A stretch of DNA of 64,000 bases from a phage: NCBI GenBank assembly GCA_019326865.1, contig GCA_019326865.1_4101.1; one strand, 5' to 3'. The notes beneath the pieces were generated by a model, which was given only the letters and a program-made list of their open reading frames with translations, was not told the origin of the DNA and did no database searches. Shown here in pieces: positions 28 to 63,861 of the stretch (the first letter of the stretch is position 1; the number at the start of each line of letters is the position of its first letter). The translations under genes and the position numbers were made by a program.

Positions 28-303
28 ATGCACAGTGCGAATGAGTATATTCATTTTATGGATGGTAAATTCACATTCATTGATTACAGTTCATTACAAT
101 ATCCACATCAAGATATGCCGGACTATACAATAATGAATGAGGCTGAACTATTTCAAGCTTCATTAGTATTTGACAAGAAGTACATCTGTACATTTGAAGA
201 AGTAATTACTATACAAAATGAAATGAAGGAGTATGCATCTTTGAATAAACCCAATGAAGGTATTAATCAAGAATACAAATTCAATATAGAGATTCCAAAA
301 TGA
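28..303 (+). CDS. hypothetical small protein, FamA (acidic-aromatic FQ motif family)
   Basis: 91 aa ORF; C-terminal 'NEAELFQASLVFDKKYICTFEE' matches FamA motif. Confidence 0.55.
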   Translation: MHSANEYIHFMDGKFTFIDYSSLQYPHQDMPDYTIMNEAELFQASLVFDKKYICTFEEVITIQNEMKEYASLNKPNEGINQEYKFNIEIPK

Positions 304-4943: not shown

Positions 4944-5493
4944 TTTAGATCTTGCGTTTGAACGCATGAAAATTTTAATGCAATGCAATGAAATGCATGA
5001 GACAATCCGTCGCACCAAAGGGATTGAATATACAAGTAAACTATTCTCATACGAAAGTCGTCGAGGGATGGATCATTTTTACTGCACTGATTGTTCAAAG
5101 TTTTCAGTACTGAAATATTATCATCCTACTGTTTCCAATAATAGTTTAATATCCACATATGACGGTGATCTGTTTAGTGTAATGTATGACACATTACATC
5201 CATCAATTTCAATATATAAAGATTGCGATAGTAGTCTATCGTATATAATTGAAGATTACTTATCTCCTAATACTGAAGAGAATATATTTCAAAACAGTGT
5301 ATTGCATGATGAATTAAGTATAAAATGCATCTATATGTTCAATAAGTTAAAAGAATACGTTGATAATAATTACTTAATTGATGAGTTAGCTGTGTTTTCG
5401 GTTTCAGTTTTCAATACAAATGATGTTGATATGAAATACTATAATGAAATTTGTAAAGTACATAACATGTATAAGGAACTCTTATGCTACTAA
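4930..5493 (+). CDS. hypothetical protein, FamA-like
   Basis: 187 aa; 'TEENIFQNSVLHDE'. Confidence 0.55.
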   Translation: MMYDDLDLAFERMKILMQCNEMHETIRRTKGIEYTSKLFSYESRRGMDHFYCTDCSKFSVLKYYHPTVSNNSLISTYDGDLFSVMYDTLHPSISIYKDCDSSLSYIIEDYLSPNTEENIFQNSVLHDELSIKCIYMFNKLKEYVDNNYLIDELAVFSVSVFNTNDVDMKYYNEICKVHNMYKELLCY

Positions 5494-6086
5494 ATGCCAA
5501 TAAATGTTGTAGTGCAGATGTGCATTTGTTTTTTAAGAAATTGGCAAATGATATTATATATATGCAGGAAATGATTTACCACAAACGAACAGATTTAGAA
5601 AAAGCATTAGTACAGTTCTCCTTTATGCTTGATGGTGATATATTTCTACATGGTGATACATTGCGAACAGTACTGGACGGAAATTCAAATAGAAGTTTCA
5701 TTTGTACAAATAATAAATTTTCTTCCACGATGTGCCGTACTTTTTATAATCCTGATTCGGACTTATATCAAGTGTCGTATTCTAAAGGTGCAGTTGAATC
5801 ATCATATTGTGATAGTTCAGCTTTAGGTAAAAGTCGTCCATATATGCAATCATTTGAAATTGAACTCATCAGTACTGATGAAGATGCAATGTTCACAAAT
5901 GATATAACGATGGATCGTGAATCTGCAATGATATATATTACAAATTCTATGCATACATTCTTTCAACGATTAGAATTTGATAATGTATATATATCAAATG
6001 TAAATATTTTCAATGATCTGTGTCAGTACTTGAAAAGTGTTTGTGATTTTGATGAAAGCTATTGTAAGCTTTATACTGAGGTATAA
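5484..6086 (+). CDS. hypothetical protein
   Basis: 200 aa ORF, weak FamA resemblance. Confidence 0.5.
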   Translation: MLLNANKCCSADVHLFFKKLANDIIYMQEMIYHKRTDLEKALVQFSFMLDGDIFLHGDTLRTVLDGNSNRSFICTNNKFSSTMCRTFYNPDSDLYQVSYSKGAVESSYCDSSALGKSRPYMQSFEIELISTDEDAMFTNDITMDRESAMIYITNSMHTFFQRLEFDNVYISNVNIFNDLCQYLKSVCDFDESYCKLYTEV

Positions 6087-11005: not shown

Positions 11006-11516
11006 AGATGATATTCTAATTAGACTAGTTCAGAGTTTGATAAAGTTCGCAAATAATGATATCAATACATACAAAGTAGGTGATATTGAATTCAAATCAT
11101 TTGGTATGTACGGTGATGACGAAACATATTATGCTTCAATGAAATTTCAAGAATTTCACGAGATGTTAATATCGTTATCATACGAAGATGTTGACCCAAG
11201 ATGGAGTTCCAGTATTTCACTATCGAGAATGGTAATTCGTAGTAAGCATCGTTACATTTCGTCAAAGAATACTCCTAACTTGATTAATATTGTGTTGAAT
11301 GAAAATACAAACCCCCTATCTAAATATGATATCGTACCTTTAACCGATGAAGCAATTTTTCAATTGAGTACCATTTGTGATGAAGATGTGATATCATGTA
11401 TGAAAATTTATGAGAAAGTTGGGGGTGATATTCCCATGAACTATTACCTAACTATAGATGAAACGTATCTCCAAGATGATGTTCTGGCGTACATTGACAG
11501 TGTTTTACCAAAATAA
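10998..11516 (+). CDS. hypothetical protein, FamA
   Basis: 172 aa; 'TDEAIFQLSTICDEDV'; followed by terminator. Confidence 0.6.
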   Translation: MDKDDILIRLVQSLIKFANNDINTYKVGDIEFKSFGMYGDDETYYASMKFQEFHEMLISLSYEDVDPRWSSSISLSRMVIRSKHRYISSKNTPNLINIVLNENTNPLSKYDIVPLTDEAIFQLSTICDEDVISCMKIYEKVGGDIPMNYYLTIDETYLQDDVLAYIDSVLPK

Positions 11517-11540
11517 AGACCCGTTATGGGTCTTTTTGTG
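11516..11540 (+). terminator. rho-independent terminator
   Basis: GACCC-GTTAT-GGGTC hairpin then TTTTTGTGTTT. Confidence 0.7.
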
Positions 11541-11548
11541 TTTATGGC

Positions 11549-11577
11549 TTTACAAGAGCATTCAGGTGTGTTATACT
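11549..11577 (+). promoter_or_regulatory. T4-early-like promoter (TTTACA-17-TGTTATACT)
   Basis: between terminator 11516-11540 and CDS 11593. Confidence 0.45.
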
Positions 11578-47151: not shown

Positions 47152-49824
47152 TTACGCACTGATTGTTACAGTTGCAGTATCTTTTTTATTACCATCCACA
47201 GTAGTCACTGTAATGATTACAGAACCTTCTTCTAGAGCAGTTACTAATCCATCATCACTAATAGATACTTTAGTAGGTTCATCTGCACTATAAGTTACTG
47301 ATTTGTTAGTTGCTTTAGCTGGAAGAACTTCAGGAACTAGTTGAACTGTTTTAGTTCCTGATAGTGAAAGTTCAGTAGTTTTAGGTGTTAAACTAACACT
47401 GGATACTGGAACTGGAATATTAACGATTACTGATGTTTGACCAGTAACATCACTACCATCAGCGGCAGTAGCGATAATATTTGCAGTACCATTAGTTAGT
47501 GCAGTTACGATACCAGTATTAGCATCTACTTTAGCAATTTCTGGAGCACTGGATGACCAAATTACTTTTTTATTGGTTGCATTACTTGGGGTAATTGCAG
47601 CAGTCATCTGTTTAGTTGCATTCAATGTAGTCAAAGTTTGATCTTTAGGAGTTACATCAATTGCAGTTACTGGCACTGGAATATTAACAGTAATAACACC
47701 TTGACCTGTTTTACCACTTCCATCAGCAGCAGTTGCGATAATGTTTGCAGAACCGTTAGTTAACGCAGTTACAACACCAGTACTAGCATCTACTTTCGCT
47801 ACAGCAGGTTTACTGGAAGACCATGTTACAGATTTATTTGTTGCGTTAGTTGGAAGAACTTCAGCAGCCATTGCTTGAGTTGCGTTAACAGCAGTCAATG
47901 TTTTAGTTGCTGGAGTAACATTAATAGATGCGACTGGAACTGGAATTGCTACAGTTACCGCACATTTTGCAGTTTTTGCTCCATCAGCAGTTGTTACTGT
48001 GATATCAGCAGTGCCATTTGCTACAGCAGTGATTAAACCAGTTGGACTAACAGTTGCCACTCCATCAGCAGAAGTACTATAAGTTACTGCTTTGTTGGTA
48101 GCATTAGGTGGTAGTACAGTTGGTGTTAGTTGTTGAGTATCACCGACTGAAGTTAATTTAGCACTTGTTGGAGATACTGATACACTTGCAACAGGAACTG
48201 GAATATTAACATTTACCACGCAAACTTTAGTAAATCCACCATCAGATGTGGTTGCTGTAATATTTGCAGTACCGTTTGCAACAGCAGTGATTAAACCAGT
48301 TGGACTTACCGTTGCGACACCCTCAGCAGAAGTAGTGTATGAAATATCTTTACGACGAGCGTTATCTGGAATAACAGATGCAGTTAGTTGTTGAGTAGCA
48401 CCTACAGAAGTTAGGGTTGCTGTCAACGGAGTCATATTAATACCAGTTACTGGGATCGTTACATCAATCACTGATTCAGCAGTTTTAGCACCATCATCAG
48501 TGGTAACAGTAATAGTTGTAGTACCGTTATCAACCGAAGTTACTAGACCAGTATTACTAACTTTTGCCACGTCTGGATATGAAGAAACATATGAAACTGC
48601 TTTATTGGATGCAGTTGTAGGAGCAACGGTTGTTTCTAATTGTTTAGTATCACCTAATGTTGAGAATGTATAAGTACTAGGAGTCATAGTGACACCAGAT
48701 ACAGGTGTTTTCACAGTGATAGTAGTAGTATCAGTTTTAGCACCATCTTCGGTTGTTGCTGTAATCACCACTGTACCGTTAGCAACACCAGTTACTAGAC
48801 CAGAAGTAGGGTTAACAGTTGCTATATCAGGTGTTGCTGAAGACCACGTGACGTTTTTATTAGTTGCATCATCAGGAGATATTGTAGCAGTTAATTGTTG
48901 AGTACCGCCAACGTTAATTGTTGCAGTTTTAGGAGAAACAACAACACCACTAACTGGAGTTGTTACAGTAACAGTACATTTTGAAACAAATATGCCATCA
49001 ACAGTAGTTGCAATTACATCAGTACTACCATCTGCAACACCAGTTACCATACCAGTTGGACTTACAGTTGCGACGCGTGGTATACTAGATAACCAATTAA
49101 CACGTTTATCACTTGCATCATCGGGTGATACGGTAGCTGTTAGTTGTTGAGTTTTACCAACACTAAGAGATAGAGTTGAAGGAGAAACAACAACACCACT
49201 AACTGGAGTTGTTACGGTAAATGCACAAACATCCGTGAAACCACCATCATGAGTAGTAACTGTTACATTTGCGTTACCATTAGCACGGGCAATTGCTAAA
49301 CCAGTTTGAGCATCAACTTCAACTATTGTTGGAGCAGAGGAACTATAACTTACTGTTTTATCATTTGCATAATCTGGATCAATTGTAGCTGATAGCTGTT
49401 GTGTACTACCAACTTTAAGTGCTACTACTTTAGGTGAAATAATTACACCATCAACTGGAGTAGTATAATCACGTTTAACCACACGACCATTGTTCAATTT
49501 AATAATACGACCCATATAAAGAGTAGTATATCCTTTACTAATCCCATCATCTACATAAATCATGAATGAATTGTCTTGAACCATATTAATTGCGTCTACT
49601 GGTTTAACGGAATTTGGAATGTCGATACCACGGGTATCATACCAACACATGGAAACTTTGTAATAGATATCACCATTATCATTTATGAGATCATAAACGT
49701 TACTGGAACGTTGACGGTTAATATATAAAGTTTCGGTTAACACCTTACCATCGATTTTAGCGACAGAAACTTTAATACCACCAATACCAAATGGCAATTT
49801 ACCTTCACTAGATATTGCTTTCAT
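47152..49824 (-). CDS. virion surface/decoration protein with nine Big_2 Ig-like repeats (Hoc-like or fibre-associated candidate)
   Basis: 890 aa; nine copies of 'NATNK.V.WSSS.P..A.V...G.VTA...G.A.I.AT..DG' pattern; only minus-strand gene; TATAAATA upstream. Confidence 0.8.
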   Translation of the reverse strand: MKAISSEGKLPFGIGGIKVSVAKIDGKVLTETLYINRQRSSNVYDLINDNGDIYYKVSMCWYDTRGIDIPNSVKPVDAINMVQDNSFMIYVDDGISKGYTTLYMGRIIKLNNGRVVKRDYTTPVDGVIISPKVVALKVGSTQQLSATIDPDYANDKTVSYSSSAPTIVEVDAQTGLAIARANGNANVTVTTHDGGFTDVCAFTVTTPVSGVVVSPSTLSLSVGKTQQLTATVSPDDASDKRVNWLSSIPRVATVSPTGMVTGVADGSTDVIATTVDGIFVSKCTVTVTTPVSGVVVSPKTATINVGGTQQLTATISPDDATNKNVTWSSATPDIATVNPTSGLVTGVANGTVVITATTEDGAKTDTTTITVKTPVSGVTMTPSTYTFSTLGDTKQLETTVAPTTASNKAVSYVSSYPDVAKVSNTGLVTSVDNGTTTITVTTDDGAKTAESVIDVTIPVTGINMTPLTATLTSVGATQQLTASVIPDNARRKDISYTTSAEGVATVSPTGLITAVANGTANITATTSDGGFTKVCVVNVNIPVPVASVSVSPTSAKLTSVGDTQQLTPTVLPPNATNKAVTYSTSADGVATVSPTGLITAVANGTADITVTTADGAKTAKCAVTVAIPVPVASINVTPATKTLTAVNATQAMAAEVLPTNATNKSVTWSSSKPAVAKVDASTGVVTALTNGSANIIATAADGSGKTGQGVITVNIPVPVTAIDVTPKDQTLTTLNATKQMTAAITPSNATNKKVIWSSSAPEIAKVDANTGIVTALTNGTANIIATAADGSDVTGQTSVIVNIPVPVSSVSLTPKTTELSLSGTKTVQLVPEVLPAKATNKSVTYSADEPTKVSISDDGLVTALEEGSVIITVTTVDGNKKDTATVTISA
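47155..49452 (-). repeat. intragenic tandem repeats encoding nine Big_2 Ig-like domains
   Basis: about 255 nt coding unit repeated nine times within CDS 47152-49824. Confidence 0.7.
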
Positions 49825-53937: not shown

Positions 53938-55377
53938 ATGAAAAAATATACAATTGACACAAACGTACTACTATCTGATCCAAATGCGTCTGTTGCTTTT
54001 GATGGTGCTGCAATCATTCTACCATTTACAGTACTGGAAGAATTGGATTCGATTAAGAGTCGCAATGTTGATGTTTCACGTGATGCTCGTGTTGCGATTC
54101 GTAACATTGAAGCAATTATTGCAGAGGCATCACATAATGAGATTAGTTGTACTGGTGTTAATATTGCTGATGTTCATACCAATATGAATCCTGATAGCAA
54201 ATTGTTTGTTATTACAACCGAAGAAGCTGAGGCACTAATTCGTACTAAAGGTTCAGACGAGAAAGTTCAAACCCTTCTTAAAAGTACTGTACCTGATGAT
54301 AAAATTATTCTGGTTGCTTTAGCAACCGAATCAGTACTGGTAACTCGTGATATCAACATGCGTATCAAAGCACTAAGTTATGGTGTCGAGGTACAAGACT
54401 ATCGTCATGATATTGTTATTGGTGATAGTGATTTGATGCACATTGGTCAACATCATTTGGAACTCAATTTTTGGGATGTATATAGCAATTTAGCAAATAC
54501 AAATATTAAAACTGAACAAATTGGTCGTCGATTGTATCATTACATTCCTAAAAGCTTGATTGGTCATTTACTTCCACAAAATCTATGCATTGGTGATTAT
54601 CTATATGATGATGCTGATGTATTATTTGTATATGAAGGCCAATCAGCCATTGAGGAAGATGATGGCACACTAACACCAGAAGATATTTTGGTATTCCAAG
54701 ACATTGGTCAATCTGTAGCTTTGCGTGCTAAAGTATGGGATATTAAAGCAAAGAATATTCAACAAGCACTTGCAATCAACAGTATTCTCGATCCTGATGT
54801 ACACCTAACAGTGCTGCTAGGTTCTGCTGGAACTGGCAAAACATTAATTACGATTGCTACTGCACTAGAGTTAGTACTGGAAAAACGCAAATACGACCGT
54901 ATTATCTTCTCTAAAACACAAGATTCACAGTTTGAAGATATAGGATTCTTGCCAGGTTCTGAGACAGAGAAAGTTATCCCATTCTGTGGACCTGCAATTG
55001 ATGCTCTTGAGTATCTTCATAAAGATGATGTATCACCACAAGGTAGCATCGAAGAGATTCTCAAACGTAACGTGATGCAATTTAAAGCATTGAACTTTAT
55101 TCGTGGTCGTTCTTTTGCCAATACAATTCTAATTGTGGATGAAGCACAGAACTTAACACCAGCCCAGTTAAAAACTGTCTTGACAAGAGCCGGAGAAAAC
55201 TGTAAAGTAATCATACTTGGTAACCTAGCACAGATTGATAACAAGTTTATCAGTCCAGTAAACAGTGGTTTGACATATGTAACTGAAAAATTCAAGGATT
55301 GGAGTGGTTGTCGTATCATTGAATTAGAAGGTGTTGTTCGTTCACCACTTGCTGAATTTGCTGAAGAAAATATGTAA
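53938..55377 (+). CDS. phoH: PhoH-like ATPase with N-terminal PIN domain
   Basis: PIN 'YTIDTNVLLSDP'; Walker A 'GSAGTGKT'; Walker B 'LIVDEAQN'. Confidence 0.85.
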   Translation: MKKYTIDTNVLLSDPNASVAFDGAAIILPFTVLEELDSIKSRNVDVSRDARVAIRNIEAIIAEASHNEISCTGVNIADVHTNMNPDSKLFVITTEEAEALIRTKGSDEKVQTLLKSTVPDDKIILVALATESVLVTRDINMRIKALSYGVEVQDYRHDIVIGDSDLMHIGQHHLELNFWDVYSNLANTNIKTEQIGRRLYHYIPKSLIGHLLPQNLCIGDYLYDDADVLFVYEGQSAIEEDDGTLTPEDILVFQDIGQSVALRAKVWDIKAKNIQQALAINSILDPDVHLTVLLGSAGTGKTLITIATALELVLEKRKYDRIIFSKTQDSQFEDIGFLPGSETEKVIPFCGPAIDALEYLHKDDVSPQGSIEEILKRNVMQFKALNFIRGRSFANTILIVDEAQNLTPAQLKTVLTRAGENCKVIILGNLAQIDNKFISPVNSGLTYVTEKFKDWSGCRIIELEGVVRSPLAEFAEENM

Positions 55378-56445: not shown

Positions 56446-56775
56446 ATGAGCAAAATTAATGTTGATGTAGTTATTGGTTATATTGAAATTGAACCGTGTA
56501 GTATTGATACAATGATTGACACTCTTAGTAAGTATCGTTTAGAGTACAGGGGACATATTAGTATTTCGCCCGACGGTGGTTACGGTGGATTCCATGGATA
56601 CAATGTAATTTGGACCAGAGAAGAAACTGACGAAGAATATAATACACGAATTGAAGCTGAATCTAAAAGACGTGAAGAAATTGATCGTCAAGAAATGAAA
56701 CAATTAATGAACAAGAAATCATTAAGTTCCGAAGAGAAAGAAAAACTTCTAACATACATCAAGGATTACATGTAA
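56446..56775 (+). CDS. hypothetical protein
   Basis: 109 aa ORF. Confidence 0.5.
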   Translation: MSKINVDVVIGYIEIEPCSIDTMIDTLSKYRLEYRGHISISPDGGYGGFHGYNVIWTREETDEEYNTRIEAESKRREEIDRQEMKQLMNKKSLSSEEKEKLLTYIKDYM

Positions 56776-57614
56776 TGAAAAATGTAACTCAAGAAAAGAT
56801 TCTGTACCTTGCAAAGTACAATGGTGGTTTCAATATCATTAGCCGTGAGTATCGTGGTAATTTGGCTAAGTTGATTGACAGCTTGTTAGAATTCGATTTC
56901 ATTAAATGGGAAACTAATGAACTTTGGTATGAATATGCTGGTCAGAAATGGGAAAGTGATTATGATAATGCAACACATACCTATACTATCACCAAAGCAG
57001 GTGAAGTTCGTCTATTGATTTATCGTCTAGCATATGCTTATAAGAATCATAAAGATACTGATAAGCACCAACGTAGGATTGATGAATTACAGCAAGCACT
57101 TCAACAATATGATTTAGATATTAATAATTTCAAAGATTGTTGTTCTAAGAATGAACTTAAAGCAATTAATGATTTCAATAGTAAGACCACAAATGTTGAA
57201 TTAACTGATTCTGTTGACTTAGAACTTTCACCATACAATACCAATCCTACTTGGGGAAGAACTCTTACTAATATCAATGATATTGATTTCAGCCAACCAG
57301 CACTGAATAATATGTTCCAAATGAGTTCAATGCTGGGTGCTAAAGGTTTTGATGCGTCAAGAACTGATGATTATGTTCTTCGTAAAATAAATGAAGAACT
57401 TGGTGAAATGACACTTGAAATGAACATCCGTGATGGGTTATCATATAAAGAAGCAGGTAAAGATGGTGTCAAAGGTGAAGCTGTAGATCTTTGCATTTGT
57501 GCACTTGACATGTTCGCTTTGCAATGCGATAATATGAGTCCAGAAGAGATGGAACGTGAGTTCCTTACTTACATGAATGTTAAACTAGCCAAATGGCGTA
57601 AATCAATTCAATAG
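56775..57614 (+). CDS. protein with MazG-like NTP pyrophosphohydrolase domain
   Basis: C-terminal 'INEELGEMTLEM...KGEAVDLCICALDMFA' (EExxE...ExxD pattern). Confidence 0.55.
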   Translation: MKNVTQEKILYLAKYNGGFNIISREYRGNLAKLIDSLLEFDFIKWETNELWYEYAGQKWESDYDNATHTYTITKAGEVRLLIYRLAYAYKNHKDTDKHQRRIDELQQALQQYDLDINNFKDCCSKNELKAINDFNSKTTNVELTDSVDLELSPYNTNPTWGRTLTNINDIDFSQPALNNMFQMSSMLGAKGFDASRTDDYVLRKINEELGEMTLEMNIRDGLSYKEAGKDGVKGEAVDLCICALDMFALQCDNMSPEEMEREFLTYMNVKLAKWRKSIQ

Positions 57615-57622
57615 GTTTTTTA

Positions 57623-58594
57623 ATGAAAACTAAAATTATTTCTGAACAAAAAATCGGCAATACTACAGTACTGAATCTTGAAGTTCAAGATCTTAGTAAT
57701 GTTCGTTCTCTTACTGTTTGTACTCAGAGAGATGATTTGACTGATTTTTATAACTCCGAATACATGTCAGAAGAACATTGGGATATGGGATGGTTAGACG
57801 GTAGTAGTTATATCAGTTCTCGTTATAGTTTTGGTTCTCATGAAAATATTGAACAAGTAAAAAATGAGTATATTAAACTCAGTGATACTATTGAAATGAA
57901 AGAAGAAGATTGTGTAGAACTTTTCATTTTTGAATTCGATGCAGGAAATGGTAATTCATTACTAGTAAGTAATATTGAAGAACATTTAATGTATCATGAT
58001 ATTGAAGATGTAGATTTTAAAAGTATTAAAAATGTTGTTCATATGGTTGGTGGTAGTATTACTGATGATTCAGATATCGGTCATAATATTTCACTGTGCT
58101 TAATTTCTCATCCAAAAACTCGTGGTTTTAAAGTTCCACAAGATGAAACTTACGTGTTTGAAACTGCTGATGAAGGAATTTATCCTTGGAATGATTATGT
58201 AGAATACTATGGTCATTTCTGTTCTGATATAAAAGAACTGAAAAAAGGCGAACGATATTTTGATATGTTCCGTGCTGCACAGCGTTTAGTACTGAATAAT
58301 ACTGAACTATTTCCTGAACGCGGTGAAGAAAATATGATTGATATTATCTTCAAGAACTATGATTATGTGCAGAACATTCCTGATAATGTACATTTGGAAT
58401 ATGTTCACGGTTCTTCAAACAAATTCTATAATATTGAATTGAATGCTCCAGTGTGTGAAGTAATCATTGAGTACGGTGCTATTGGTAAAACCAGTACTAC
58501 CGATGGTGAAGAATTCGAAACTATTGAAGAAGCACGTAAGTTCTTCGAGAAGAAAGTAATTTCCAAAATTAAAAGTGGTTATATCCCAAAATGA
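57623..58594 (+). CDS. protein with C-terminal WGR-like domain
   Basis: 'SSNKFYNIELNAPVCEVIIEYGAIGKTSTTDGEEFETIEEARKFFEKKVISKIKSGY' fits WGR pattern. Confidence 0.5.
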   Translation: MKTKIISEQKIGNTTVLNLEVQDLSNVRSLTVCTQRDDLTDFYNSEYMSEEHWDMGWLDGSSYISSRYSFGSHENIEQVKNEYIKLSDTIEMKEEDCVELFIFEFDAGNGNSLLVSNIEEHLMYHDIEDVDFKSIKNVVHMVGGSITDDSDIGHNISLCLISHPKTRGFKVPQDETYVFETADEGIYPWNDYVEYYGHFCSDIKELKKGERYFDMFRAAQRLVLNNTELFPERGEENMIDIIFKNYDYVQNIPDNVHLEYVHGSSNKFYNIELNAPVCEVIIEYGAIGKTSTTDGEEFETIEEARKFFEKKVISKIKSGYIPK

Positions 58595-59364: not shown

Positions 59365-59393
59365 CAGTACTGTCATAGTGGCAGTACTTTTTA
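59365..59393 (+). terminator. rho-independent terminator built on AGTACT motif
   Basis: AGTACTG-TCATAGTGG-CAGTACT then TTTT. Confidence 0.6.
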
Positions 59394-59406
59394 ATTGGAG
59401 ATTACT

Positions 59407-60021
59407 ATGACTACATCGGAAAAGTACTGGTGGATTTTGGGTCATCCTAAATTCATAAACAAAGATATGGTTCCAGCTAGGATTGATATAGAACCTCATG
59501 ATGTGTGTCCAATGACAAATCGAATTGAAGATTTCAAAGCATTGAATACAAAGACTCAATTTTGGGTAGAATTTCTTTCACCAATGTATATTGAGCAAGA
59601 CGACGAATGGGTACAAGCACATGATTATGAGTTAGATTGCGGTGGTGATACTTATGATGAGGCAATTGACGCACTATACAAAAATGTGCTAAACACTTAT
59701 GGTGATTACACCCAACAAGAAGCAGACGATACGTTTAATAAGATCCATGCAGCCATTTCTACATCATCAATTTACAATCCAGCAAAAACAGTTTGGGAAG
59801 AACGTCACGGGTGGAGTTCATCTGTAATTGATGCAGAAGCCAAAGAAACAATTCTCGAAGACATAAAAAATATAAAAAGTACAATAGAAGCCTTGCGTGA
59901 ATTTATAAAGTCTTGTACAATAGAACAACAGAAAGAGGCAAAGATGCATTTGGAAAGTGAAGAATGTAAACTTTGGGTTCTAGAGAAATCTATTGAAAAG
60001 GGTATAGACTTAGACTTATGA
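59407..60021 (+). CDS. hypothetical protein
   Basis: ATG 59407 after GGAG; 204 aa. Confidence 0.5.
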   Translation: MTTSEKYWWILGHPKFINKDMVPARIDIEPHDVCPMTNRIEDFKALNTKTQFWVEFLSPMYIEQDDEWVQAHDYELDCGGDTYDEAIDALYKNVLNTYGDYTQQEADDTFNKIHAAISTSSIYNPAKTVWEERHGWSSSVIDAEAKETILEDIKNIKSTIEALREFIKSCTIEQQKEAKMHLESEECKLWVLEKSIEKGIDLDL

Positions 60022-60386
60022 ATAGTAAATTGGAGAAATTAATCGAAGAATTACGCCAGATGCCGCCGATTGAACAAGTAGGTAATTATAAACGGTATCG
60101 TATTATTGCTCGTGCACTTGATAAAAAAGGTCGAGTTCTGGCAACTCGCACCAATTCTTATACACAGACACATCCAGTACAGAAGGGTTTCGCCATCCGT
60201 GCTGGAAGACCACAAGGTGAGTTTCTTCATGCTGAAATTTCATGTTTATTAGCTGCACGTGCTGATGTTCATACTTTGTTGATTGCACGGATAAGTAAAG
60301 ATGGAATTCCTGTTCCAGCCAAGCCTTGTGAGATTTGTACGTTGGCAATAGCAGAATATGGTGTGAAAGAGATTATCCACACATGA
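60018..60386 (+). CDS. cytidine/deoxycytidylate deaminase-fold protein (small, second deaminase)
   Basis: 'LHAEISCL' and 'PCEICTLAI' zinc-binding motifs about 30 aa apart; 122 aa. Confidence 0.65.
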   Translation: MNSKLEKLIEELRQMPPIEQVGNYKRYRIIARALDKKGRVLATRTNSYTQTHPVQKGFAIRAGRPQGEFLHAEISCLLAARADVHTLLIARISKDGIPVPAKPCEICTLAIAEYGVKEIIHT

Positions 60387-60607
60387 AGAAAATCGAACGC
60401 CACAAAAACCATACAGTTGTGGCTGAAGATGATATATTTTATTATTATATTTTCAGACCCACACACTGTTTACAAATAACGACATTTGAGAATGATAATT
60501 TCAAAGATGTCAACTTCCATATAACAGATTTAGCTAAATATTCCAGTACTGAACACTTTAGTAATCTAGTATTTGTGTACTGTATTCCAAACTCAAATAA
60601 TAAGTAG
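60383..60607 (+). CDS. hypothetical small protein
   Basis: ATGA-coupled start at 60383; 74 aa. Confidence 0.4.
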   Translation: MKKIERHKNHTVVAEDDIFYYYIFRPTHCLQITTFENDNFKDVNFHITDLAKYSSTEHFSNLVFVYCIPNSNNK

Positions 60608-60616
60608 GAGATTAAA

Positions 60617-60976
60617 ATGGCTAAAACAATTTCTTTAAAAAATGAAAAGGTAGGACAACGAAAAGATGGCTTCTATGGCTTTTCTTGGACTACATTATTT
60701 TTTGGACCTTTCCCTGCATTGTTCCGTGGTGACTTTATTACGTTTATCGGTGCATTTGTAATTTACTTCATCCTAAACGCAGTGTCTTTTTGGATTGTAG
60801 GTTCTATTGCCATGATCGTATGGGCATTTCTTTATAATAAGTACTACACAGTGAATCTCATCAAGAATGGGTATAAATTCAATGGCACACATGAAGAAAA
60901 TGCTGAAGCTGCAATGGCTTTGCAAATTGATTTGAATAAAAACAACACAGTTGATAAAAATAAAGATCCTGAGTAA
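60617..60976 (+). CDS. membrane protein
   Basis: 119 aa; GGAG RBS; hydrophobic helices. Confidence 0.5.
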   Translation: MAKTISLKNEKVGQRKDGFYGFSWTTLFFGPFPALFRGDFITFIGAFVIYFILNAVSFWIVGSIAMIVWAFLYNKYYTVNLIKNGYKFNGTHEENAEAAMALQIDLNKNNTVDKNKDPE

Positions 60977-61195
60977 ATGGAAAAATACGATATAATTTAC
61001 GATTATTATGGTAAGGCTTATATGAAGTGTGGGCGTTATGTTGAACTCTCTAATAGAGATTCAATAGATCCTCACACTATTATAACAATTCACAACTCTT
61101 ACTATAAAAAAGTTACAATAGCTAATTTTGCAACATACGTAAATAATCCTTTATTTCCTTACATTATTCAGTACTACTGTCGAGTTATAAAATAA
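60977..61195 (+). CDS. hypothetical small protein
   Basis: 72 aa ORF. Confidence 0.45.
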   Translation: MEKYDIIYDYYGKAYMKCGRYVELSNRDSIDPHTIITIHNSYYKKVTIANFATYVNNPLFPYIIQYYCRVIK

Positions 61196-61206
61196 GGTAA
61201 AAAGAC

Positions 61207-61617
61207 ATGTTAGCCGATGATTTTATGTCTCTAAGTACCAAAATATTTGATATATTAGGAGATGAAATCGATTTTCATCTAAATGATGCAACTATACCGT
61301 TAGAAGATGGTGGTTATTTTTTCGCAATTGGTTATAAGTACAATGTTGATTTTTCAATTCCGATTCCTGATGGAAGTGATTACACATCATCAACATATTT
61401 TGAATTTCAGTTCAGAGGACACAAAGAGCGTTTACTAACATATAGACGTAAAGGTAATTTCAGTAGACCAGAGATTATATTAATGGATATTGAAAAACGC
61501 ATAGAAATTGCAAAGAATAATCCATTCTTCAGTTCTTATGCGTTAAATCAACTTATTGAACTATTTGATGGCTATCCAGACAGAATACGAGGGTCGTTAC
61601 GTATAAATGCAGAATGA
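61207..61617 (+). CDS. hypothetical protein
   Basis: 136 aa ORF. Confidence 0.5.
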   Translation: MLADDFMSLSTKIFDILGDEIDFHLNDATIPLEDGGYFFAIGYKYNVDFSIPIPDGSDYTSSTYFEFQFRGHKERLLTYRRKGNFSRPEIILMDIEKRIEIAKNNPFFSSYALNQLIELFDGYPDRIRGSLRINAE

Positions 61618-61792
61618 AATCTTTAAAAAAGAATATGATGGTGAAAGCCTTTATGATATTCAGAGAGATGTTCATGAAGCCTTTGATTCAAAATTTAACC
61701 CATTAGCTGAACAAATCCCACAAGATGAATTTGGTTTTCAGGAAGGCACTTTCACAGTGACTATTACATGGAGTCCAGATGAGACTAGCTAA
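61607..61792 (+). CDS. hypothetical small protein
   Basis: 61 aa ORF. Confidence 0.4.
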   Translation: MQNEIFKKEYDGESLYDIQRDVHEAFDSKFNPLAEQIPQDEFGFQEGTFTVTITWSPDETS

Positions 61793-61896
61793 ACTTGTCA
61801 TAGGGTGTAGTGCAATTGCTGCATATATGATTTTTTCACCTCCAACCAATGTATTACTGCTAATTTGGGCGGTTGTTATATTAGCAGTACTTTAAA

Positions 61897-61918
61897 AGCA
61901 CCTTAGTGGTGCTTTTTA
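61897..61918 (+). terminator. rho-independent terminator
   Basis: AGCACC-TTAGT-GGTGCT then TTTT. Confidence 0.6.
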
Positions 61919-61994: not shown

Positions 61995-62055
61995 ATTGTC
62001 TGGTGATATTAAATATCTTCACCCCCAGATGATTTCAAAATACAAGGAATGTACA

Positions 62056-63861
62056 ATGCAGCTAGATAAATTATATAATGACGTAACGAATTTCCTAAAT
62101 CAGAGTAATACAGATCTCACAAATGAAAATGCGAACAAAGATGCGAAGTGCGTCAATACACACAGGGATTTACTTGCAGGTATCCTATCTAAACATTATT
62201 CACAAGATGTTATCCCAAATGAACTAATGCAGTGGCATAATGATGGTTATGGACATATTCATGATTTAGACTACTATATCAGTCCATTAACCAACTGTTG
62301 CTTAGTCAACTACCCAGATATGCTAAAAAATGGATTTACTATTGGCTGTGCTAAAATTGAAGAACCAAAAAGTTTTAGTGTTGCATGTACAGTACTAACA
62401 CAGATTGTACAAGCTGTAGCTAGTTCACAATACGGAGGTCAATCGTTGGCTCACATTGATGTCGGGTTGGAACCTTACGTTAAAAAGTCATGGTATAAAC
62501 TATTAGAAAAACAAAAGAAATATAATCTAAGTGATGAATACATTGAAGAAGAATTACGAAAAGAAGTATACGATGGATGTCAAACATTACTTTATCAAAC
62601 TAATTCAATGATTAGTACTAATGGTCAAGCTGCATTTATTTCTCTTAGTTTAGGTTTGAATACTTCCAAATTTGGTAAATTAATCACCGAACAGTACTTA
62701 AAAGTTCATGAGAATGGTTTAGGTAAAGATAAGATTACTCCAGTGTTTCCTAAAGTTATTTTCTTTTTACAAGATGGTATAAACATGAATACCAATGATT
62801 GTAATTATGACCTTAAACAGTTAGCTATGCGTTGTGCATCAAAGCGAATCTACCCAGACTTTGTTTCAGTTCCATTAAATCACAAAGTGACGGGAAGTAG
62901 TAGTACTGCGGTAACACCAATGGGTTGTCGTTCATTCTTAGGAAAATGGGAAGATTCAAATGGAAATGAACAATATAACGGTCGCTTCAATTTAGGTGTA
63001 GTTTCTATCAATTTACCACTAATTGCTCTTGAAAGTGCTACAGATGGAGAGTTTTTTGATAAGATAGATGAGCATATGAATATTGCATATCGTGCTCAGA
63101 TGAACCGCGTAGAGCGTTTAAAAGGTACAAAAGCGAAACAGAATCCAATTTTGTTTATGGAAGGTGCATTAGCACGTTTAGATGCAGAAGAAACTATTGA
63201 CAAGCTATTTTACAATGGTTATGCTAGTATTAGTATTGGTTATGTTGGACTTGTTGAATGTTCGGAAATCCTCACTGGTTCTATCAGTAAGGAGTTTTGT
63301 ATGTCAGTACTGAATTATATGAAAGTAAAATGCGATGAGTTTAAAAAAGAAAGTAATATTGCTTTTAGTTTATATGGAACTCCAGCAGAGTCACTTTGTT
63401 ATAAATTTGCACGTTGCATTGAAGCAAAGTATCCGTCTGTTCTAAAACGTAATTATATTACAAATTCATTCCATCAACCAGTATGGGTTGAAAGTTCTGC
63501 TTTTGAAAAGTGGGATTATGAGGAAAACTTTGCTTATCTAAGCAATGGTGGTAATATTAGCTATGTCGAAACACCAAACTTAACAAACAACATTCAAGCA
63601 CTTGAAACATTAATCAATTATGCCTATAAAAAAATTCCATATTTTGGAATAAACCAGCCTATAGATCATTGTCATAAATGTAATTTTGAAGGTGAATTCA
63701 GCGTCGATAAAAACGGTTTCCACTGTCCAGTTTGTAATAATAGAGATGAAAAATCTATGTCAGTTATTCGAAGAGTTAGCGGATATCTTAGTGCACCAAA
63801 TAGTCGCCCATTCAATAAAGGAAAGCAAGATGAAGTGATTCAGAGAATTCGCCATTTATAA
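62056..63861 (+). CDS. nrdD: anaerobic ribonucleoside-triphosphate reductase
   Basis: ATG 62056 after AAGGA; 'DLTNENANKD...RDLLAGILSKH' parallels T4 NrdD; glycyl-radical 'RRVSGYL'; C-terminal 'CHKC...CPVC'; uninterrupted. Confidence 0.9.
   Translation: MQLDKLYNDVTNFLNQSNTDLTNENANKDAKCVNTHRDLLAGILSKHYSQDVIPNELMQWHNDGYGHIHDLDYYISPLTNCCLVNYPDMLKNGFTIGCAKIEEPKSFSVACTVLTQIVQAVASSQYGGQSLAHIDVGLEPYVKKSWYKLLEKQKKYNLSDEYIEEELRKEVYDGCQTLLYQTNSMISTNGQAAFISLSLGLNTSKFGKLITEQYLKVHENGLGKDKITPVFPKVIFFLQDGINMNTNDCNYDLKQLAMRCASKRIYPDFVSVPLNHKVTGSSSTAVTPMGCRSFLGKWEDSNGNEQYNGRFNLGVVSINLPLIALESATDGEFFDKIDEHMNIAYRAQMNRVERLKGTKAKQNPILFMEGALARLDAEETIDKLFYNGYASISIGYVGLVECSEILTGSISKEFCMSVLNYMKVKCDEFKKESNIAFSLYGTPAESLCYKFARCIEAKYPSVLKRNYITNSFHQPVWVESSAFEKWDYEENFAYLSNGGNISYVETPNLTNNIQALETLINYAYKKIPYFGINQPIDHCHKCNFEGEFSVDKNGFHCPVCNNRDEKSMSVIRRVSGYLSAPNSRPFNKGKQDEVIQRIRHL

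Follow-up and report, generated by a model that had tools for sequence, protein, structure and literature searches.

The phage DNA analyzed here, a stretch of 64,000 nucleotides referred to as the window, encodes a mini-deaminase that belongs to a distinct phage-borne clade, that of phiKZ ORF260 and 121Q gp490, and that is probably an active zinc deaminase. A second deaminase in phages of this kind was already known; what is new is that this protein does not qualify as a dCMP deaminase, the name under which it has been annotated.

Gene, fold, and predicted active site

The sequence-only reading of the window proposed a second, minimal protein of the cytidine deaminase fold, carrying the signature HAE...PCxxC and encoded in addition to the phage's dCMP deaminase, Cd. 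These proposals were borne out. The mini-deaminase matches Pfam PF00383 at 27.4 bits (gathering cutoff, 25), a profile also matched by 96 of the 96 family members scanned, and PHROG 174, "dCMP deaminase," at 1.8e-13. Its AlphaFold2 model (pLDDT, 91.2; pTM, 0.84) has the three-layer alpha/beta/alpha fold of the superfamily, with strand order 2-1-3-4(-5), but lacks both helix 4 and strand 5; the chain ends one residue past strand 4. Across four Asteriusvirus orthologues, dN/dS is 0.03 to 0.07 (dS, 0.24 to 0.80), which rules out a chance or artifactual open reading frame (ORF). Judged from its sequence, the ORF is a functional gene and encodes a predicted zinc-dependent, hydrolytic member of the cytidine deaminase superfamily.

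The translation contains the strings EFLHAEISCLL and AKPCEICTLAI, with P103-C104-E-I-C107 encoded by nucleotides 60324 to 60338. All 96 diverse homologues aligned (mean column identity, 25%) retain H71, E73, P103, C104, and C107. Neither of the two outcomes that would have refuted the original proposal, a non-deaminase fold upon structure prediction or loss of zinc ligands upon alignment, was observed. H71, C104, and C107 are positioned as predicted ligands of the catalytic zinc, with E73 as the predicted proton shuttle. Our literature search found no activity measurement for any member of the family.

The assignment of Cd likewise held, with a PF00383 match of 7e-22, a PHROG 174 match of 1.4e-61, and the canonical motifs SKC..KVG, GYNGTP, HAEMNAL, PCYTC, and VIYEKSY. 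The mini-deaminase is not a recent paralogue of Cd; BLASTP between the two detects no similarity (E = 11), and they are linked solely by profile-profile comparison (hhalign against canonical Cd: probability, 99.1%; E, 9e-19).

The earlier comparison with the canonical T4 gene set proved to be the wrong frame. The window is an Asteriusvirus-like (121Q/PBECO4) jumbo coliphage, not a T4 relative, with DNA 90 to 94% identical to that of the Asteriusvirus jumbo phages UE-S1, TH47, ph0011, 121Q, and PBECO4, in which the gene is already annotated. The 121Q orthologue gp490, a member of the same family that is 96.7% identical over 122 amino acids, is publicly annotated as "dCMP deaminase"; the ph0011 record names both genes "CMP/dCMP-type deaminase domain-containing protein"; and GAP32_134 (56% identical) is recorded as "dCMP deaminase, similar to phiKZ ORF260." [quoted passage not shown] The phiKZ ORF260, GAP32_134, 121Q gp490, and CBB proteins share with the window protein their length, T-H-P-x-Q, HAE (HSE in phiKZ-like phages), and PCxxC. 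The window gene is an ordinary orthologue, which nothing essential sets apart from them. The public name of the family derives from the generic PF00383 match. In the literature, we found no experiment supporting this name and nothing on the function of phiKZ gp260 or on "two dCMP deaminases."

Table 1. Features of the mini-deaminase locus and of the predicted protein (window nucleotides unless residues are indicated)
Feature	Position	Strand	Remarks
Canonical dCMP deaminase (Cd), 159 aa	46152..46631	+	Comparator; all clade motifs
Terminator-like hairpin	59366..59388	+	10-bp stem, then T run; directly upstream of the deaminase gene block
Upstream gene, 204 aa	59407..60021	+	Alternative TTG start at 59395
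Mini-deaminase ORF, 122 aa	60018..60386	+	ATG start; from the ORF listing of the window
N46 codon	60153..60155	+	Strand 2 end; at least 90% conserved in the family
Segment with H52, P53, Q55	60168..60182	+	Each at least 90% conserved in 96 sequences
H71-A72-E73	60228..60236	+	HxE signature; predicted zinc ligand and catalytic Glu
R91	60288..60290	+	Strand 3 end; nearly invariant
K102-P103-C104-E105-I106-C107	60321..60338	+	Predicted zinc-ligand cysteines (PCxxC) after the family-typical A-K
Downstream ORF, 74 aa	60383..60607	+	Its ATG overlaps the mini-deaminase stop (ATGA)
Terminator-like hairpin	61894..61916	+	Closes the gene block, before nrdD
nrdD	61996..63861		Downstream of the gene block
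Helix 1; strand 1; strand 2; family-specific helix	Residues 3-14; 28-34; 40-45; 53-61		Predicted, mini-deaminase model
Helix 2 with HAE; strand 3	Residues 72-80; 86-92		Predicted, mini-deaminase model; then hairpin loop
Helix 3 with PCxxC; strand 4	Residues 105-114; 118-121		Predicted, mini-deaminase model; then stop codon

A compact phage family outside the dCMP deaminase clade

The family was defined in this analysis; no curated model exists for it. An exhaustive profile search retrieved 4,458 cluster representatives at E values of ≤1e-3 and 1,071 at ≤1e-10. Members are 96 to 166 amino acids long among the 150 matches listed and apparently all come from phages, with the mini-deaminase present in 196 database records from many genera. 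The motif set comprises N...(K)-T-H-P-x-Q, HAE(I), an R ending strand 3, A-K-P-C-x-x-C, and G-(I/V)-K-x-(V/I)-x-(Y/H)-T. N46, H52, P53, Q55, and R91 are near-invariants peculiar to the family, and A101 and K102 are invariant in one family alignment. The window protein conforms to the family in length, motif set, termination at or shortly past strand 4, and basic pI.

Charge and C-terminal length both set the family apart from canonical Cd. The pI has a median of 9.63 and exceeds 8.5 in 97% of 200 members, whereas only 4% of the canonical phage Cd homologues (n = 120; median, 6.43) exceed this value. The median C-terminal tail is 18 residues, compared with 44 in canonical Cd; half of 200 members end 15 to 17 residues past PCxxC, and the others have only 8 to 14 residues more. 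In the longer members, the sequence of the short tail that immediately follows strand 4 resembles that of an antiparallel, hairpin-type strand 5. The best structural matches in BFVD are unnamed viral proteins of 109 to 138 amino acids (TM, 0.73 to 0.83), and the best profile match among characterized proteins is the S-TIM5 dCMP deaminase (E, 2.7e-12).

As criteria for the dCMP deaminase/ComE and TadA/Tad2 clades, we used the synapomorphies of Iyer et al. 2011 (PMC3239186). Like the T4 Cd/S-TIM5 dCD/ComEB clade, the family belongs to the superfamily, has a zinc site made of HxE plus PCxxC, and ends strand 2 with an Asn. Missing from it are the second zinc site, NxxP, HAExNA, a Tyr following strand 4, helix 4, and strand 5. 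Where dCMP deaminases have the zinc-stabilized cap, the mini-deaminase has the segment with H52, P53, and Q55; this insert is a single helix, without conserved Cys beyond PCxxC. Since H52 is the only conserved Cys/His besides the catalytic ones, the family has no second zinc site. S17, C19, and C49 are invariant in the canonical Cd alignment. Of NxxP (GYNGTP), the Asn alone aligns, the window sequence being N46-S-Y-T-Q-T-H-P53 and that of the family N-S-Y-x-K-T-H-P. Likewise, HAExNA is represented by HAEISC in the window and HAEIxAL in the family, without the Asn that is invariant in canonical Cd (Asn88). In place of TxxxT with PCxxC directly behind it, strand 3 has the sequence H-T-L-L-I-A-R, and a hairpin of 10 residues comes next. 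R91 starts this loop of 8 to 10 residues ahead of PCxxC, which dCMP deaminases do not have, and the spacing from HAE to PC is 32 to 36 residues in the family versus 25 to 27 in Cd. Finally, dCMP deaminases have a Tyr between strand 4 and helix 4 and, after that helix, a strand 5 that runs parallel; the window protein stops one residue past strand 4, and the tails of the family leave no room for helix 4 together with strand 5.

Relation to other deaminase groups

TadA/Tad2 enzymes have E-P-C-x-M-C where the mini-deaminase has A-K-P-C-x-I-C, and their C-terminal tRNA-binding helices after strand 5, with a Glu and a Phe contacting the tRNA (PMC3239186), are absent from the mini-deaminase. A search of NCBIfam returned no TadA match. 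The small tetrameric cytidine, blasticidin-S, and MafB19-type deaminases, which make up the C-terminal hairpin division, resemble it in size (about 100 to 135 amino acids) and in the long loop from strand 3 to PCxxC, and the longer family members resemble them in their tails. In addition, the strand-2-end Asn and the strand-4-start Gly listed for MafB19 (PMC3239186) are both matched, and HxE is shared with the MafB19-like toxins. However, tetrameric cytidine deaminases carry CxE and PCxxCR, with an Arg after the second Cys, whereas the mini-deaminase has HxE and no PCxxCR. Its scores are 13.3 bits for TIGR01354 (tetrameric cytidine deaminase; cutoff, 113.65; E, 0.075) and 14.7 bits for PF14437 (MafB19-like; cutoff, 27). 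MafB19-like toxins form the C terminus of secreted polymorphic toxins and are accompanied by an immunity gene; the mini-deaminase, in contrast, is a stand-alone 122-residue product of a phage operon in which neither is present.

Phage methylation-selective cytidine deaminases of the PF00383/PF14437 type, annotated as dCMP deaminases, act on noncanonical substrates, including single-stranded DNA (ssDNA); of 194 phage "dCMP deaminases" that were soluble, 56 proved active on ssDNA in vitro (bioRxiv 10.1101/2024.12.05.627091). Among the methylation-selective enzymes, mSCD-B5 has 154 amino acids and a prototypical dCMP deaminase fold and is linked to a thymidylate synthase homologue (bioRxiv 10.1101/2024.12.05.627091), whereas the mini-deaminase is shortened to 122 amino acids, and no thymidylate synthase is encoded beside it in the window.

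Genomic context

The mini-deaminase gene lies in a block of eight small plus-strand genes (59395 to 61895) between two terminator-like hairpins (Table 1). Its start overlaps the stop codon of the 204-residue upstream gene (ATGA). This upstream protein, restricted to Rak2-like jumbo phages, adjoins the deaminase in GAP32 too (36% identity) and is the sole cotraveling neighbor, only within that group. The 74-residue downstream ORF was not seen beside the deaminase outside Asteriusvirus. The nrdD/nrdG genes lie 1.6 kb downstream both in the window and in GAP32. Apart from a WGR domain and a MazG-like region, annotation of ten neighbor genes with Pfam and PHROGs returned nothing but uncharacterized families, and we found no common neighbor across the phiKZ-like, cyanophage, T5-like, T4-like, and other contigs carrying the family. 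The mini-deaminase and a canonical Cd occur together in Asteriusvirus, CBB, and Limnohabitans phage DC31; in DC31, the two genes are two apart, with ThyX nearby.

Candidate substrates and roles

We tentatively favor, slightly ahead of a free nucleotide, a substrate base, most likely cytosine, within a phosphate-rich polymer, either single-stranded DNA or RNA. Every element by which dCMP deaminases enclose a free base (the zinc-stabilized cap, the Tyr behind strand 4, and the pair formed by helix 4 and strand 5) would have been lost or never present, and the short T-H-P-x-Q helix and the basic hairpin from R91 to A-K may stand in for them. With these enclosing elements missing, their replacements basic, and the family as a whole strongly basic, the active site is therefore most likely open and basic, as also suggested by a model that stops at strand 4, the short tails, and the missing second zinc site. 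In such an arrangement, N46 would hold the sugar moiety, while backbone phosphates may be contacted by R91, K102, and the basic residue that precedes T-H-P. In related deaminases (CDA, dCD, and TadA), the Asn equivalent to N46 touches the substrate sugar.

The pI contrast with Cd (medians of 9.63 versus 6.43), the co-occurrence with Cd, and the ssDNA precedent (56 of 194) all argue for the nucleic acid reading. Against it, the closest characterized relatives by sequence profile are mononucleotide enzymes, and nucleotide metabolism genes lie near the mini-deaminase in several lineages (nrdD/nrdG; Cd and ThyX). An unspecific ssDNA or RNA deaminase would threaten the phage's own genome and transcripts, and a defined small ligand would be equally compatible with a number of strongly conserved polar residues that surround the site. 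Cytidine deaminases of the tetrameric type, comparable in size, have active sites closed by adjacent subunits, so an open monomer model is no proof of an open site. Nor is basic charge a rule among nucleic acid deaminases, given that the pI of Escherichia coli TadA is 7.1.

A serious contender, though still a doubtful one, is deamination of a free pyrimidine nucleotide or nucleoside, be it dCMP, dCTP, CMP/CTP, (deoxy)cytidine, or 5-modified dCMP. In that case, the mini-deaminase would supply dUMP/dTMP as a minimal enzyme free of regulation, working next to a Cd that is under allosteric control, and would probably form an oligomer in which each active site is completed by a neighboring subunit. 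In phages, deamination of free nucleotides or nucleosides is the most frequent role of the fold as well as the ancestral one (PMC3239186), and canonical Cd is present in 3,662 phage records. Moreover, dCMP deaminases are the top profile matches, PHROG 174 bears their label, and N46 aligns with the sugar-binding Asn of GYNG. The spacing from HAE to PCxxC is 32 to 33, the short hairpin-like tails recall the small tetrameric cytidine deaminases, and there is the weak TIGR01354 match (E, 0.075). The position of the gene is also consistent with such a role, near the nrdD/nrdG module in the window and GAP32 and, in DC31, two genes from Cd and near ThyX; however, no nucleotide metabolism neighbor conserved across lineages was found. 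Of the features defining dCMP deaminases, only the catalytic motifs and the Asn are present, the uniformly high pI is unlike that of Cd, and a complete Cd co-occurs, so plain dCMP deamination would be redundant.

It is conceivable, if rather unlikely, that the family constitutes the smallest natural nucleic-acid-editing deaminase (about 100 to 125 amino acids, four strands), editing ssDNA, RNA, tRNA, or an immune-signal nucleotide during infection by large virulent phages. If so, it would represent a previously unrecognized phage takeover or counterdefense activity as well as an ultracompact base-editor scaffold. More generally, action on nucleic acids or signaling nucleotides would be a new phage activity, and an unregulated nucleotide deaminase would refine models of phage dNTP supply. 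Over a thousand clusters filed as "dCMP deaminase" or hypothetical fail every clade-specific dCMP deaminase test, and several phage lineages retain the mini-deaminase alongside a complete Cd. Either way, a confidently folding predicted zinc deaminase of 100 to 122 residues would be useful for compact base editors and methylation-sequencing enzymes, for which phage "dCMP deaminases" have already been of use (bioRxiv 10.1101/2024.12.05.627091).

Editing of tRNA by a TadA-like adenosine deaminase, for example, conversion of A34 to inosine in phage or host tRNAs, is improbable. Three family members are labeled "tRNA(Arg) A34 adenosine deaminase TadA" by JGI, and the second-best profile match is a Mycoplasma tRNA deaminase, but neither EPCxMC nor the pair of C-terminal helices bearing the Phe that contacts tRNA is present. 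Phage groups in which the family is seen contain tRNA genes, and close relatives of the window phage have a tRNA-Ser, conserved without any change, whose unusual anticodon, ACU, contains A34. However, inosine 34 on this split-AGN-box Ser tRNA would misread AGA (Arg) by established wobble rules. The ACU tRNA occurs in only 18 Escherichia phage records, compared with 196 for the deaminase, and the tRNA cluster of DC31 has no A34 tRNA although the deaminase is present. The distribution of tRNA-Ser(ACU) does not follow that of the deaminase, which is much the more widespread of the two.

Slightly more improbable still is a counterdefense enzyme acting on an immune-signal nucleotide or on a depleted or poisoned nucleotide pool, for example, on cCMP or cyclic oligoadenylates or by reversing or preempting a host dCTP deaminase defense. 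The family is apparently restricted to large virulent phages and lies in fast-evolving early regions rich in small ORFs, like many antidefense genes, and polyanionic ligands would suit its basic charge. One distant member lies beside a NAMPT plus NMNAT-Nudix NAD reconstitution module and another near the tRNA repair genes Rnl1, Rnl2, and PNKP; no defense neighbor is conserved across lineages, though, and the idea rests wholly on context. A literature search found no such deaminase among antidefense proteins, and a PADLOC search found no relative.

A noncatalytic zinc module, whether a regulatory or inhibitory partner of Cd, host TadA, or a host defense deaminase or simply a nucleic-acid-binding protein, would fit the shortened core, from which parts needed for a complete active site elsewhere in the superfamily are missing, but is the least credible role of all, as the catalytic Glu, which is not needed for zinc and is lost in ADAT3 (PMC3239186), is invariant in 96 members, and the substrate-sugar Asn is at least 90% conserved.

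Results

The mini-deaminase ORF (122 codons; product MNSKLEKLIEELRQMPPIEQVGNYKRYRIIARALDKKGRVLATRTNSYTQTHPVQKGFAIRAGRPQGEFLHAEISCLLAARADVHTLLIARISKDGIPVPAKPCEICTLAIAEYGVKEIIHT) is a real deaminase-fold gene. The HAE and PCxxC motifs quoted in the sequence-only reading recur unchanged in it, PF00383 scores 27.4 bits (barely over the Pfam gathering cut-off of 25), and PHROG 174 ("dCMP deaminase") matches at 1.8e-13. The AlphaFold2 model, computed from a 22-sequence alignment (pLDDT 91.2, pTM 0.84), has the deaminase fold, with a complete and conserved zinc site and catalytic Glu. Neither reservation of that reading, lost zinc ligands or a non-deaminase fold, applies. Across four Asteriusvirus orthologues, dN/dS is 0.03-0.07 at dS 0.24-0.80, and the gene is thus under strong purifying selection. 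It lies among eight small plus-strand genes bounded by two terminator-like hairpins, a class found 7 times versus 2.0 ± 1.6 in shuffles; promoter-like sites showed no enrichment in the same scan.

Features of the window in the mini-deaminase region and at the canonical deaminase
Feature	Position	Strand	Basis or remark
Cd, canonical dCMP deaminase, 159 aa	46152-46631		PF00383 7e-22; PHROG 174 1.4e-61
890-aa ORF just downstream of Cd	47152-49824	-	sole minus-strand gene amid plus-strand genes
Adjacent ORFs, 252 and 183 aa	51942-53248	+	synteny only
479-aa ORF following this pair	53938-55377		counterpart of 121Q gene annotated PhoH-like
279-aa protein	56775-57614	+	residues 192-278 match PHROG 1247 "MazG-like pyrophosphatase", 5e-16
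323-aa protein, C-terminal WGR domain	57623-58594	+	PF05406 1.9e-10
Terminator-like hairpin, block flank	59366-59388		hairpin scan vs shuffles
204-aa upstream protein	59407-60021	+	
ATGA, upstream stop overlapping mini-deaminase start	60018-60021		
Mini-deaminase ORF	60018-60386	+	ATG start, 122 codons
H71-A72-E73	60228-60236	+	read from sequence
P103-C104-E-I-C107	60324-60338	+	read from sequence
ATGA, mini-deaminase stop overlapping next ORF's start	60383-60386		
Terminator-like hairpin, other block flank	61894-61916		hairpin scan vs shuffles
nrdD	start 61996		

The sequence-only reading was right about the fold and the minimal scaffold; its framing against the T4 set was misplaced, as the DNA of the region is 90-94% identical not to T4 but to the Asteriusvirus jumbo coliphages UE-S1, TH47, ph0011, 121Q, G17, Sharanji and PBECO4 (about 350 kb each). 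A second deaminase is already known from these and other relatives: 121Q gp490 is recorded as "dCMP deaminase", GAP32_134 (the GAP32 mini-deaminase) as "dCMP deaminase; similar to ORF260 of phiKZ", and both ph0011 homologues, of the mini-deaminase and of Cd, as "CMP/dCMP-type deaminase domain-containing protein", while two CMP/dCMP deaminases supplying thymidylate synthase were described in phage CBB (PMC5259590). We found no experiments on the second deaminase in the literature.

Our analysis adds that the mini-deaminase represents a large, basic and ultra-compact phage deaminase family, here the mini family (phiKZ ORF260/121Q gp490 type). By tblastn it occurs in 196 of 50,697 phage records, spanning phiKZ-like phages of Pseudomonas, Aeromonas phages, Rak2-like jumbo phages that infect enterobacteria, Erwinia and Xanthomonas, Salicola SCTP-2, Limnohabitans DC31 and 57 Synechococcus myoviruses. 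When 1.84 billion cluster representatives were searched exhaustively with a profile, 4,458 matched at E≤1e-3 (1,071 at E≤1e-10), and all 150 matches listed are 96-166 aa long. Nearly all sampled clusters are unnamed metagenomic proteins; three of four readable contigs look like phage genomes, one contig carrying T5 A2, NAMPT, DnaB and ligase genes, a second T4 DsbA and RNase H, and a third Rnl1, Rnl2 and PNKP. In a 96-sequence alignment (mean column identity 25%), H71, E73, P103, C104 and C107 are invariant and N46, H52, P53, Q55, A72, R91 and A110 at least 90% conserved; a tighter set additionally fixes T51, L70, I74, G96, A101 and K102. The closest viral-model structures are likewise unnamed proteins of 109-138 aa (TM 0.73-0.83), with annotated dCMP deaminases ranking below them.

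BLASTP between the two window proteins gave no match (E = 11), and only profile-profile comparison links the mini and Cd families (hhalign probability 99.1%, E 9e-19, 18% identity). According to Iyer et al. 2011 (PMC3239186), the synapomorphies of the dCMP deaminase/ComE group include NxxP after strand 2, NA two residues past HxE, TxxxT in strand 3 and, between strand 4 and helix 4, a Tyr. An alignment of 35 canonical homologues of Cd recovers these synapomorphies (S17, C19, G38, N40, C49, H84, E86, N88, P109, C110 and C113 invariant, Y131 nearly so), whereas the mini family retains only the catalytic residues and the Asn, has no further conserved Cys, and is modelled with a single helix as its insert. 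Spacing from HAE to PC is 32-36 residues versus 25-27 in Cd, and the median tail past PCxxC 18 residues versus 44. The modelled chain stops one residue past strand 4, and without helix 4 its topology recalls the small enzymes of the hairpin division. About half of 200 members end 15-17 residues past PCxxC, typically with a conserved (H/Y)-T at the end; the others carry 8-14 extra residues (e.g., TTDDGYGYE), an extension long enough for a hairpin strand and too short for helix 4 and strand 5 together.

The mini-deaminase also lacks the TadA synapomorphies EPCxMC and two C-terminal helices bearing the tRNA-contacting Phe (PMC3239186), scores 13 bits with the tetrameric cytidine deaminase model (cut-off 114) and 14.7 bits with MafB19 PF14437 (cut-off 27). 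Against PDB sequences, the mini-family profile ranks S-TIM5 dCMP deaminase first (2.7e-12), followed by a Mycoplasma tRNA deaminase (3e-9), other dCMP deaminases (2e-8 to 7e-6), TadA proteins (5e-6 to 2e-4) and, last, B. subtilis cytidine deaminase (3e-3). Given this order and the missing dCMP-deaminase, TadA, tetrameric and MafB19 features, we treat the mini family as a separate clade, to which the dCMP-deaminase/TadA group is nearest in sequence.

Charge also separates the families. Median pI is 9.63 (5th-95th percentile 8.77-10.18) and median net charge +9 in 200 mini-family members, 97% of which exceed pI 8.5, versus 6.43 and -2 in 120 canonical Cd homologues, of which 4% do. The contrast persists when the comparison is limited to more distant members; the window's own proteins have pI 9.58 (mini-deaminase) and 7.62 (Cd).

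Genes neighbouring the mini-deaminase contain no known domains besides a WGR domain and a MazG-like region, and no neighbour common to lineages was found among the contexts compared. The translationally coupled 204-aa upstream protein is confined to Rak2-like jumbo phages and is adjacent in GAP32 too (36% identity). Its confident AlphaFold2 model, an N-terminal alpha/beta domain plus a long helical hairpin, retrieved only coiled coils and no informative PDB match; its invariant H13, H31, C34, H72 and D77 (C78 at least 90%; 17 homologues) suggest a metal site. A WGR-domain protein is annotated at the matching position in Sharanji, and another lies a few genes upstream of the mini-deaminase of Xanthomonas phage XaC1. 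In 121Q and ph0011, no gene of the 323-aa protein's size is annotated at that position, so this gene appears to be a variable insertion. The MazG-like protein is another nucleotide-metabolism-type gene nearby. The 252- and 183-aa ORFs match in size and order the annotated sirtuin-type deacetylase and Nudix hydrolase genes of ph0011; by synteny, they and the 479-aa ORF could form an NAD/ADP-ribose-related cluster a few kb upstream of the mini-deaminase.

Limnohabitans phage DC31 (PQ492658.1; 76 kb, Pakpunavirus-like) is the clearest case of both deaminase types side by side. Its 114-aa mini-deaminase, annotated hypothetical (4992-5336 of the L005 stretch), lies two genes upstream of a 151-aa canonical deoxycytidylate deaminase (5582-6037), in a block that also holds a flavin-dependent thymidylate synthase.

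Close relatives also encode, outside the window, a class II tRNA-Ser with anticodon ACU (Sharanji OR545507.1 95470-95561, i.e., 11471-11562 of the L015 stretch, minus strand; identical in 121Q 75464-75555, ph0011 302740-302831 and UE-S1 66918-67009). With A at wobble position 34 in the anticodon loop CUACUAA, it does not vary among 18 Escherichia Asteriusvirus records (100% identity), versus a coding-DNA dS of 0.24-0.8 in the group. Bacteria and phages seldom have A34 tRNAs; this one may be an AGU specialist or an anticodon variant escaping a host anticodon nuclease.

Discussion

From what is established about catalysis in the superfamily, H71, C104 and C107 would hold a zinc-bound water, E73 would shuttle the proton for hydrolytic attack on cytosine C4 (or adenine C6), and N46 would contact the sugar. 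On either side of the site, the loops bear conserved basic residues (R91, K102 and the Lys that precedes T-H-P in the consensus of the family), and the mini-deaminase accompanies a complete Cd in three or more lineages. In our reading, these features and the overall basicity point to an open active site that would suit a base on a phosphate-rich chain, and we tentatively favour ssDNA or RNA as the substrate. There is precedent: of 194 phage "dCMP deaminases" that were soluble, 56 proved able to deaminate ssDNA in vitro (bioRxiv 10.1101/2024.12.05.627091).

Action on a free nucleotide is only slightly less likely. The dCMP deaminases are the closest sequence relatives, the gene has an nrdD/nrdG neighbourhood in both the window and GAP32, and in DC31 it lies close to Cd and ThyX. 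An open site in the monomer may also mislead, as active sites of small tetrameric deaminases are closed by adjacent subunits, and an unspecific nucleic-acid deaminase would be dangerous to the phage itself.

Deamination of tRNA A34 gains some colour from the invariant tRNA-Ser(ACU) and is nonetheless improbable: the distributions of this tRNA and of the mini-deaminase do not fit, TadA features are missing, and in the split AGN box I34 would misread AGA. We consider a counter-defence role on a signal nucleotide very improbable as well, and a non-catalytic role, at odds with the invariant catalytic Glu, the least probable of all.

The features that define the dCMP-deaminase clade do not justify the public label "dCMP deaminase" for the mini-deaminase. 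Cd fits it well, with motifs SKC..KVG, GYNGTP, HAEMNAL, PCYTC and VIYEKSY and, as top NCBIfam matches, ComEB and an anti-phage dCTP deaminase domain (ComEB 1.5e-19 versus TadA 8e-8); the name "tRNA-specific adenosine deaminase" that UniRef gives to the canonical Cd homologue (cluster P0234) is therefore probably an annotation error. The ph0011 counterpart of the 890-aa ORF beside Cd is annotated hypothetical.
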